Assembly: GCF_003334385.1 (NCBI RefSeq)
Contig: NZ_QOWN01000016.1
Strand: one strand, 5' to 3'
Source of the DNA: Escherichia coli
Lineage (GTDB): Bacteria > Pseudomonadota > Gammaproteobacteria > Enterobacterales > Enterobacteriaceae
DNA length: 64,000 nt
This document shows positions 59,711-63,233 of the stretch, piece by piece. Every line of letters starts with the position of its first letter. Within the stretch, counting starts at the first letter, position 1. Under the pieces are notes generated by a model, which made no database searches, had not been told where the DNA came from, and saw only the letters and a program-made list of their open reading frames with translations. A program made the translations under genes and the position numbers.

Positions 59711-59808
<98 letters not shown>

Positions 59809-59837
59809 ATAAACAAAGCGCACTTTGTCAATAATCT

Positions 59838-59869
59838 GAAGCCCCGGCCATGTGCCGGGGTTTCTTTTT
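59838..59869 (+). terminator. Intrinsic terminator downstream of obgE, after the REP pair
   Basis: CCCCGGC-catgt-GCCGGGG followed by TTTCTTTTT. Confidence 0.7.
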
Positions 59870-59871
59870 GA

Positions 59872-61305
59872 CTAATTGTTCTGATAAATATCTTTATACA
59901 AACGGCTTTCAAAACGCACTAACGGAATACGGCGATTACGCTGATCCGCAGGTTCTACTGCATAGCCAGAAAGATATTGCACAAACGCCATTCGTTGCCC
60001 GCTCGCTGTGGTAATGAATCCCGCCAGGTTATATACCCCCTGCAACGAACCGGTTTTCGCTGAGACTTTTCCATCCACGCCCGCCTGATGCAGACCTGCA
60101 CGGTACTGCAAAGAGCCGTCATAGCCCGCCAGCGGCAGCATGGAGATAAAGTTAAGTTCATTGTCGTGTTGGACAATGTATTGCAGCACCTGCATCATGG
60201 TGGCGGGGGCAATCAGGTTATGCCGCGAAAGCCCTGAACCATCGGCAATAATGGTGTTTCCAATATCGACACCGGCTTGCTGGCGCAGGATCTGACGCAC
60301 GGCGTCCGACCCGGCCCGCCATGTTCCAGGCACATTGAAGCGCGCATGGCCTATCATGCGGAAAACCGTATCGGCGATCATGTTGTCCGACTTTTTCAGC
60401 ATAATCTTAAGCAGATCGTGCAGCGGGGCCGACTGTTTACTGGCAACTACCGTTCCAGGTTCGTTAACCTGAGTCTGGCGCAGCAGTGTTCCGCTCCAGG
60501 TGATACCCGCCTGTTTTAACTCATCTTTCAGAATTGCACCGGCATAGCTGGCTCCATCCTGCACGGCAAAAGCCAACGGGAGCGGCTCAGAACGTTGTGG
60601 CAGGCATCCCGTCAGCGTAAAGCGGTTCAGGTCGCCTGGCACCACATCCAGTTCGCAGTATTGCGCTTCGGCAGAACCACGGGGGAGGGTGCGTACCTGG
60701 CTGAACATCGTAACGGGGTAATAAGATGCCACGCGTATAAAAGCCATATCACCAGGCTTTGGGGCACTGTAGAGCGAGACGGAGAAACAGTTGCGGTCAA
60801 CTATGGCGGCGGCAGGCGGAGCGCTAAAGCATTGTGTCATGTCATTCCATGGCCAGCCGGGGGCTTTATCGTGGCTGGCGAAAATGGAGGTATCTATCAA
60901 CACATTGCCATCGATTTGGTTGACGCCAGATTTTTTCAAAGTCGCGACCATATTGCGAATATCCTGACGTTTTAACGTCGGATCGGCACCAAATCGCGCC
61001 ACTAAGTCACCCTTAAGTACGCCGTTTTCCACATTGCCTTTGGTTTCAAGCGTCGTGGTAAAACGAAAATCGGGGCCGAGTTGAATCAACGCCGCCAGCG
61101 CAGTAATCACTTTCTGGGTACTGGCAGGCAGCGCCATCTGCTGACTGTGGTAATCAATAGCGGGGGCCGACGCGCCGACTTTTTGCACCATCAGGGCAAG
61201 GTTGGCACCAGCGGGGAGTTGAGTAATGTACTCATCAACATTTGCGGCCTGAACACTGAACGCTATACAGCTGGTCAATCCGATGATAAATCTGGAAAAT
61301 CGCAT
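59872..61305 (-). CDS. dacB: D-alanyl-D-alanine carboxypeptidase/endopeptidase PBP4
   Basis: 477 aa with a signal peptide and STQK active-site motif; recognised as DacB. Confidence 0.95.
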   Translation of the reverse strand: MRFSRFIIGLTSCIAFSVQAANVDEYITQLPAGANLALMVQKVGASAPAIDYHSQQMALPASTQKVITALAALIQLGPDFRFTTTLETKGNVENGVLKGDLVARFGADPTLKRQDIRNMVATLKKSGVNQIDGNVLIDTSIFASHDKAPGWPWNDMTQCFSAPPAAAIVDRNCFSVSLYSAPKPGDMAFIRVASYYPVTMFSQVRTLPRGSAEAQYCELDVVPGDLNRFTLTGCLPQRSEPLPLAFAVQDGASYAGAILKDELKQAGITWSGTLLRQTQVNEPGTVVASKQSAPLHDLLKIMLKKSDNMIADTVFRMIGHARFNVPGTWRAGSDAVRQILRQQAGVDIGNTIIADGSGLSRHNLIAPATMMQVLQYIVQHDNELNFISMLPLAGYDGSLQYRAGLHQAGVDGKVSAKTGSLQGVYNLAGFITTASGQRMAFVQYLSGYAVEPADQRNRRIPLVRFESRLYKDIYQNN

Positions 61306-61414
61306 AATCTCGCGCTAACAACCTGGAATCGAGCCGTCATACTACGGCGCAACGCCCTATAAAGTAAACGATGACCCTTCGGGAACTTCAGGGTAAAATG
61401 ACTATCAAAATGTG

Positions 61415-61448
61415 AATTGTAGCTGACCTGGGACTTGTACCCGGGTCG
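61415..61448 (+). terminator. greA leader intrinsic terminator, which would release a short GraL-type leader RNA
   Basis: Hairpin GACCTGGG-acttgta-CCCGGGTC (one G-U pair) followed by GGTATTTTTTT, about 100 bp upstream of the greA start. Confidence 0.55.
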
Positions 61449-61552
61449 GTATTTTTTTGCTTCTGGCCCCGGTAAGGAGTTATGCCGGGCAGGCCGAACA
61501 GCCGGGGTGGGTGAAGACTTGCCCTATCAGGAATATTCAAGAGGTATAACAA

Positions 61553-62029
<477 letters not shown>

Positions 62030-62072
62030 GAATTACCCAATACTCAAGATGTTGATGTATTGTAAAGAAAGG

Positions 62073-62097
62073 AAAAAGGCCGCTATGCGGCCTTTTA
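62073..62097. terminator. Bidirectional terminator between convergent greA and yhbY
   Basis: AAAAAGGCCGC-atag-CGGCCTTTT. Confidence 0.8.
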
Positions 62098-62184
62098 TCA
62101 ACGAACAGAGCGTGGCATTTTGCTCTCCTGCCTGCGGAAAACCCCTCGTTTTACACAGCAAATGTGTGTAACTTTAGGATAATC

Positions 62185-62478
62185 TTAGCGTGGCAGCGAG
62201 ATTTTACGTTCTTTAGTTGGGCGATAAAGCACCAGCGTTTTACCGATGACCTGTACATTACAGGCGCCGGTTTCGCGCACGATAGCTTCCACGATCAAGG
62301 TTTTAGTTTCGCGATCTTCGGTGGCGATTTTCACCTTGATGAGTTCATGGTGCTCTAACGCTTGTTCAATCTCGGCCAGCACCCCTTCGGTCAAACCATT
62401 ACTGCCAAGCAGAACAACTGGCTTGAGCGGATGTGCCAGACCTTTCAGGTGCTGTTTTTGTTTAGTACTCAGATTCAT
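62185..62478 (-). CDS. yhbY: CRS1/YhbY-type RNA-binding protein (ribosome assembly)
   Basis: 97 aa; recognised as YhbY; divergent from rlmE. Confidence 0.93.
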   Translation of the reverse strand: MNLSTKQKQHLKGLAHPLKPVVLLGSNGLTEGVLAEIEQALEHHELIKVKIATEDRETKTLIVEAIVRETGACNVQVIGKTLVLYRPTKERKISLPR

Positions 62479-62603
62479 CGTATTTTTTGCTTACGTTGGG
62501 ATTGAAAACGGGTCATTCTACCGCCATCTCCCATATATCACCAAATAGGCGCGTAAAAATTTACGCAATTGGTTACGATGAGTTATCCCCATGGGAAAGT
62601 TAA

Positions 62604-63233
62604 ATGACAGGTAAGAAGCGTTCTGCCAGCTCCAGCCGCTGGCTTCAGGAACACTTTAGCGATAAATATGTTCAACAGGCACAGAAAAAGGGGTTACGTT
62701 CCCGTGCCTGGTTTAAACTTGATGAAATACAGCAAAGTGACAAACTCTTTAAACCGGGAATGACGGTTGTCGACCTTGGTGCTGCTCCGGGTGGTTGGTC
62801 ACAATATGTGGTCACCCAAATTGGCGGCAAAGGCCGCATCATCGCTTGCGATCTTTTACCTATGGATCCTATCGTTGGTGTGGACTTTCTTCAGGGCGAT
62901 TTTCGTGATGAACTGGTGATGAAAGCACTGCTGGAGCGCGTTGGCGACAGCAAAGTCCAGGTTGTCATGTCCGATATGGCACCAAACATGAGCGGAACAC
63001 CGGCGGTGGATATCCCCCGTGCCATGTATCTGGTGGAACTGGCGCTAGAAATGTGTCGTGATGTATTAGCGCCAGGTGGCAGTTTTGTAGTGAAGGTGTT
63101 CCAGGGCGAAGGTTTCGATGAGTATCTAAGGGAAATTCGCTCCCTGTTTACGAAGGTCAAAGTTCGTAAGCCGGACTCTTCTCGTGCACGTTCGCGGGAA
63201 GTGTATATTGTAGCGACCGGGCGTAAACCCTAA
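62604..63233 (+). CDS. rlmE: 23S rRNA (U2552 2'-O)-methyltransferase RlmE (FtsJ/RrmJ)
   Basis: 209 aa with SAM-binding motif [11 protein letters not shown]; recognised as RlmE. Confidence 0.96.

Follow-up and report, generated by a model that had tools for sequence, protein, structure and literature searches.

The locus considered here raises the question of what a hairpin followed by a run of thymines does in the leader of greA, and whether it takes part in the control of that gene. The window, a stretch of 64,000 nucleotides of Escherichia coli DNA (contig NZ_QOWN01000016.1, assembly GCF_003334385.1), carries greA on the plus strand at 61553–62029, encoding 158 amino acids, as given by the list of open reading frames and by RefSeq for the K-12 region, which is identical. 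The gene is flanked divergently by dacB (59872–61305, minus strand; from the same list and the RefSeq annotation). Also within the window's last 4.5 kb are obgE (plus strand), yhbY (62185–62478, minus strand) and rlmE (62604–63233, plus strand). The hairpin is on the same strand as greA, between the promoters P1 and P2 of that gene and its start, and dacB runs divergently. A role as the terminator of an upstream gene was excluded, since dacB is divergent and lies on the opposite strand.

The hairpin is formed on the plus strand, which is the coding strand of greA, and has a stem of 11 pairs built from a 5′ arm, GCTGACCTGGG (61422–61432), and a 3′ arm, CCCGGGTCGGT (61440–61450), that are joined by a 7-nt loop, ACTTGTA (61433–61439). 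Seven of the pairs are G–C, one is A–U and three are G–U. Directly 3′ of the stem lies the T-tract ATTTTTTTGCTT (A T7 G C T T, 61451–61462). Counted from the greA ATG at 61553, the stem ends 103 nt upstream and the T7 run 95 nt upstream, in agreement with a first-pass annotation of this DNA that had placed a stem-loop with a U-tract about 100 bp upstream of the greA start on the coding strand. The interval it gave, 61415–61448, begins 7 nt too early, stops 2 nt short of the last stem pair and omits the T-tract. Folding gives the hairpin region a minimum free energy of −20.2 kcal/mol (z = −3.4 against shuffled sequences), and the 59-nt P1 transcript (61404–61462) one of −21.4 kcal/mol (z = −4.2), a stability that none of 200 shuffles equals. 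An intrinsic terminator is recognized by a GC-rich hairpin and a following U-rich tract on the transcribed strand, and both are present here.

At the leader the sole matching Rfam family is RF01769 (Enterobacteria greA leader), whose score of 127.5 bits exceeds the gathering score of 60 (E = 4.4e-24). The match is full length, with model positions 1–124 corresponding to 61336–61457 of the window, and the terminator hairpin is the 3′ hairpin of the model (positions 88–117). In the greA leader Potrykus et al. (2010; PMC2836576) described an intrinsic terminator whose stem of 11 bp leads into AU7GCU2, and positions 61422–61462 of the window fit this description exactly. The element is almost certainly the E. 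coli GraL terminator, which is Rho-independent, moderately efficient and located 18 nt past the start of greA P1. It is already known, having been published in 2010 and refined in 2019, and the reading made from sequence only is a correct re-identification of it; as such it can serve to some degree as a positive control of that first-stage reader.

Comparison of the window with K-12 MG1655 over 3.4 kb (59750–63120) gives two differences. One is at 60173, within dacB (A in the window, G in MG1655), and the other at 61467 (C in the window, T in MG1655), which is 5 nt beyond the last mapped GraL 3′ end. Neither falls in the promoters, the hairpin or the T-tract, and the sequence from the promoters through the T-tract is identical to that of MG1655. 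Since the window matches MG1655 over the element, the experiments published for that strain are directly applicable here. A 371-nt segment around the terminator is found in all 5426 of the 5426 complete E. coli genomes, at 95–100% identity, and strain SCU-104 has 100% identity to the window over 61250–61620.

The promoters can be placed on the window with the help of the published start sites. A consensus scan locates P1 at 61371–61399 on the plus strand, with a −35 hexamer ATGACC (61371–61376), a 17-nt spacer and a −10 hexamer TAAAAT (61394–61399). P1 depends on sigma-70 and P2 on sigma-E, the latter starting 11 bp downstream of the former (PMC2836576). As the greA AUG is at +150 from P1 (Dylewski et al., 2019; PMC6829880) and the ATG lies at 61553, the P1 start is A61404, and the P1 hexamers are at the expected spacing from this position. 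The P2 start is A61415 or A61416. P2 overlaps P1 (61382–61409, plus strand), with a −35 box GGAACTT (61382–61388) and a −10 box TCAAA (61405–61409), and these boxes fit the sigma-E consensus, GGAACTT-N16-TCAAA. Among the 118 orthologues described below GAACT and TCAAA are invariant or nearly so, GAACT itself being part of the pattern used to find them. The dinucleotides at the two starts, AU at 61404–61405 and AA at 61415–61416, agree with the published initiating dinucleotides, ApU for P1 and ApA for P2 (PMC2836576). No other greA promoter has been validated in published work, according to which P3 and P4 are probably processing products.

The transcript from P1 begins with the 5′ single-stranded segment of GraL, AUCAAAAUGUGAAUUGUA (61404–61421, plus strand, +1 to +18), which in the minimum free energy fold is unpaired except for a weak 5-bp outer helix. 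It continues with the terminator hairpin (61422–61450, plus strand, +19 to +47) and the U-rich tract A-U7-G-C-U2 (61451–61462, plus strand), in which termination is imprecise. The regions distinguished by Dylewski et al. (2019) correspond on the window to 61404–61421 (+1 to +18), 61422–61451 (+19 to +48) and the sequence beyond 61462 (past +59). In published studies GraL is 49–59 nt long when started from P1 and 37–47 nt when started from P2, with ends mapped to ±2 nt, and these lengths place the 3′ ends at 61452–61462. The ends proposed in the first-pass annotation, at 61445–61450, are therefore too far upstream. Transcripts that pass the terminator, about one-third of the total, carry the remainder of the greA 5′ untranslated region (61463–61552, plus strand), with a Shine–Dalgarno sequence AAGAGG at 61539–61544.

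Termination at this site has been characterized in detail. About two-thirds of the transcripts from P1 and P2 end in the leader, with 3′ ends spread over approximately 10 nt, and give rise to the GraL RNAs (PMC2836576); published values for the greA leader are 66% in vivo and about 60% in vitro, constant through growth. Pure RNA polymerase frees the short RNAs from immobilized templates, and Gre factors have no effect in vitro (PMC2836576). Northern blots reveal clusters of about 45 and 55 nt that are present only with the terminator, and removal of the terminator raises reporter activity about 3-fold (PMC2836576). Published mutations of the stem alter both the efficiency and the precision of termination, and shortening the stem from its top lowers efficiency. 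The first reading had also predicted premature termination of greA transcripts and a short leader RNA of the GraL type, and this is borne out by the termination of about two-thirds published for the identical sequence and by the RNAs detected on Northern blots. A search of the literature available found no Term-seq paper that names GraL; an mBio 2014 RNA-seq paper cites GraL and nothing more.

Conservation was followed across the order by scanning the DNA of one genome for each species with the pattern of the promoter block, AAAGTAAACGATGNCCN6GAACT. This gave 120 loci, 118 of them usable, from the Enterobacteriaceae, Erwiniaceae, Pectobacteriaceae, Yersiniaceae and Hafniaceae; the set was chosen by the promoter motif and samples motif-keeping lineages only. 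In every complete locus with a recognizable start, the motif is followed by greA 170–216 nt downstream. In 106 of the 118 loci the hairpin is perfect and its tail rich in T, most of the stems having 9–15 bp and the offset being constant, and folding gives bulged hairpins in the other 12, which a strict mismatch-free search had missed. The 11 stem pairs of E. coli are formed in 91.7% of the cells of the alignment of the 118 orthologues (A1), and nine of the 11 show compensatory changes. Double changes occupy 100 cells of the stem, compared with 34 ± 8.6 after shuffling, a number reached by none of 500 shuffles, and sliding the 3′ arm by 1–3 columns lowers the pairing to 20–57%. This pairing and covariation demonstrate that the terminator structure has been selected across the Enterobacterales.

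The same changes bear on whether the hairpin has a role in RNA at all, or is instead a fortuitous GC-rich hairpin or a protein-binding palindrome acting at the level of DNA in the dacB–greA divergent region. Such a reading could draw on the position between divergent genes and on the stem core, CCTGGG...CCCGGG, which is partly palindromic as DNA. However, three of the 11 pairs are G–U, and the substitutions preserve pairing (G–U to C–G, C–G to U–A), which points to selection on RNA structure; the T-tract is found on the greA strand only; and termination with release of the transcript has been shown directly in published work, in vitro as well as in vivo. A DNA-level or fortuitous origin is thus vanishingly improbable.

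The features that surround the stem are less constant than the stem itself. The bottom pair is G–U in 48 sequences, C–G in 29 and U–G in 10, and only Escherichia, Citrobacter and Salmonella have an 'A' after the stem and an uninterrupted U7, in place of which UUUUCUUUU is present in most genera. Potrykus et al. (2010; PMC2836576) tied the 'A + U7' tail and the bottom G–U pair to imprecise termination and noted their conservation in four species, but across the order these features are not kept (A1 columns 89/120 and 121–130). Imprecise termination may be clade-specific. In Tenebrionibacter intestinalis the hairpin is kept (−17.9 kcal/mol) and the T-tract is replaced by GTAAGACTGCTG; a greA start was not recognized downstream in the DNA fetched for this species. 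The function of the terminator may have been lost in this lineage.

A terminator in a 5′ leader invites comparison with classical attenuators, in which an upstream antiterminator competes with the terminator hairpin. Naville and Gautheret (2010; PMC2965389) report a 'clear antiterminator structure' for the greA and rnk leaders, and RF01769, the whole of which is matched by the window, holds three helices 5′ of the terminator. These helices (61336–61406) are not contained in the transcripts, as the starts of P1 (61404) and P2 (61415 or 61416) lie downstream of or inside them. The screen from which the model derives took up to 200 nt 5′ of each terminator, ignoring transcription starts (PMC2965389). 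Nor do the helices covary in the 118 orthologues. Their covariation is 0.010, against 0.010 for shuffled alignments and reached by 245 of the 500 shuffles, a test in which 3′ columns 29–30, 34–41 and 48 are fixed by the search pattern, limiting helix 1, and in which columns 42/47 and 57–60/68–71 are free to vary. The columns that do vary break the pairs, with 38, 46 and 39 unpaired cells at three of them. The upstream Rfam helices were accordingly excluded as an antiterminator or leader structure, since they lie 5′ of the mapped starts and show no covariation.

The transcripts themselves offer little room for an alternative fold. Only 18 A/U-rich nucleotides precede the stem in the real transcript, both the minimum free energy and the centroid folds retain the full terminator, and folding of 61404–61462 gives no antiterminator in the P1 and P2 transcripts. 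Within 61404–61421 there is no leader open reading frame, no aptamer and no other Rfam family. In addition, GreA enhances rather than relieves termination (PMC6829880). A classical attenuator is therefore very unlikely. The suggestion made at first that this is an attenuation-like control point holds in so far as GreA raises termination in vivo, but there is no antiterminator and the effector increases termination, so that the element is not an attenuator in the classical sense. It is a partial constitutive terminator tuned upwards by GreA, and not a switch between terminator and antiterminator. The authors of the 2019 study take the same view and call the element hard to classify (PMC6829880).

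The approximately 70 nt of the RF01769 match that lie at 61336–61403 contain highly conserved blocks, GTCATACTACGG and AAAGTAAACGATGACC, and the blocks of this region include the −35 hexamer of greA P1. On the minus strand there is a weak candidate promoter for dacB, TTTACT (61368–61363) and TAGTAT (61344–61339) with an 18-nt spacer. The region looks like conserved divergent promoter DNA and not like RNA structure. Caution is required in the use of RF01769, as about two-thirds of this greA-leader model is promoter DNA.

In E. coli, RNA polymerase has GreA as its main factor against backtracking and for fidelity, and the GraL terminator both sets the level of GreA and feeds back on it. Deletion of greA lowers GraL about 4-fold and derepresses a reporter fusion about 3.5-fold, and the catalytically dead variant D41A does not complement (PMC6829880). 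The feedback is independent of the promoter, and deletion of the sequence past +59 is harmless to autoregulation; it does require the native +1 to +18 segment and the native sequences of the arms, scrambling of +1 to +18 giving weaker autoregulation (PMC6829880). In the purified system GreA leaves termination unchanged (PMC2836576; PMC6829880). Nus factors, Hfq and sigma-E have been ruled out as cofactors of the feedback, and GraL supplied in trans has no effect on greA fusions (PMC6829880). Because the effect of GreA is not reproduced in vitro, we infer a cofactor or an indirect route.

Taken in order, the events at the leader are as follows. Transcription starts at two strong overlapping promoters, P1 (sigma-70, 61404) and P2 (sigma-E, 61415 or 61416), and the 11-bp hairpin (61422–61450) folds in the nascent RNA. 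At UAU7GCU2 about two-thirds of the polymerases let go, at any of about 10 adjacent positions (61452–61462), to give GraL RNAs of 37–59 nt. The remaining third or so pass the terminator and make greA mRNA, so that the terminator sets the output of GreA. Active GreA in vivo raises the terminated fraction, closing a negative feedback loop. In a speculative 'second-chance' mechanism GreA would act directly at the GraL terminator: polymerases that creep through UAU7GCU2 would slide back into the U-tract, and cleavage stimulated by GreA would remake the 3′ end within the zone of termination, so that the hairpin could once more bring about release. We regard this as distinctly unlikely, and it would still need a cofactor, GreA being inert in the purified system. 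If it were true, the greA leader would sense how well the cell itself can counter backtracking.

A further question is whether the terminator serves greA, or chiefly marks the 3′ end of a separate gene for a trans-acting small RNA, to which read-through into greA would be incidental. Most of the output of the two strong promoters goes into GraL, and overexpression of GraL has been published to change more than 100 genes and to improve fitness. GraL is also reported to act in trans, with nudE named as its target, a role for which overexpression data are cited. The reason why strong promoters should precede a terminator is a puzzle raised by the published authors themselves. A gene for a small RNA would be compatible with the main explanation of the element as the GraL terminator of the greA leader. 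As an account of its primary role it meets with the observations that the terminator cuts a greA reporter about 3-fold and mediates the feedback by GreA in cis, and that GraL in trans does not act on the fusions. Moreover, greA has no other validated promoter on which to rely, P3 and P4 probably being processing products. Across the order the stem structure and the promoter boxes are kept, and the loop, the bottom pair and the tail vary, a pattern that suits a terminator acting in cis at least as well as a small RNA that pairs through a seed. On balance a primary role in trans is unlikely.

Downstream of the GraL terminator, a second hairpin, GGGGUGGGU / GAAG / ACUUGCCCU, is found in the read-through leader at 61504–61525 (plus strand). 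Its stem is of 9 bp in E. coli, no U-tract follows, and it lies 28 nt 5′ of the greA AUG. Among 56 Enterobacteriaceae its covariation is 0.507, against 0.284 for shuffled alignments (reached by 0 of 500 shuffles), with 60 double-change cells against 18, and all seven aligned pairs show compensatory changes. As the published deletion past +59 keeps the feedback (PMC6829880), this hairpin is dispensable for regulation by GreA. It may have a role in the stability, translation or processing of the mRNA.

The leader also contains a 10-codon open reading frame at 61482–61514 (plus strand; ATG at 61482, TGA at 61514), which would encode MPGRPNSRGG and follows an AAGGAG at 61474–61479. No more than 2 nt separate this Shine–Dalgarno sequence from the ATG. 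E. albertii, E. whittamii and a divergent 'E. coli' have GTG in place of the ATG and have lost the stop, and other genera have unrelated small open reading frames or none at this place. It is probably not a gene.

Between obgE and dacB (59732–59838) there are REP-like palindromic elements, unrelated to the GraL terminator, which give Rfam matches below threshold to naRNA4 (40.5 bits, threshold 59.5) and to ES036 (31.5 bits, threshold 37.6). They are followed, 3′ of obgE, by a hairpin at 59838–59864 (plus strand) that resembles a strong terminator. Where greA and yhbY converge, the stretch between them has a palindromic hairpin of 10 perfect bp, AAAAGGCCGCATAGCGGCCTTTT, on both strands (62074–62096); with T-runs on both strands, it is probably a shared bidirectional terminator. 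The sub-threshold Rfam matches to this segment are terminator-like and likewise unrelated to the GraL terminator.

The closest known system is the GraL/greA leader of K-12 itself (PMC2836576; PMC6829880), which is at the same locus and has the same P1, P2, 11-bp stem, 7-nt loop and UAU7GCU2. There is no difference within the element, the nearest being C61467, which is T in K-12. The RF01769 family, which comes from a screen for premature terminators (PMC2965389), is matched over its full length and shares the 3′ terminator hairpin, but 61336–61403 and the helix that ends at 61406 are upstream of the published transcription starts and show no covariation. As in trp and his leaders, T-boxes and riboswitch expression platforms, an intrinsic terminator in the 5′ untranslated region is combined with read-through that sets downstream expression. 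Unlike trp and his leaders and T-boxes, the greA leader has neither a leader peptide nor an antiterminator fold, with 18 nt before the stem, and unlike in classical attenuators its effector, GreA, enhances termination and is inactive in the purified system. The SreA riboswitch of Listeria, named by Dylewski et al. (2019; PMC6829880), is likewise a terminated leader reported to act in cis on its own gene as well as in trans on another mRNA. GraL differs from SreA in having no ligand-binding aptamer, in its length of only 37–59 nt and in its heterogeneous 3′ ends.
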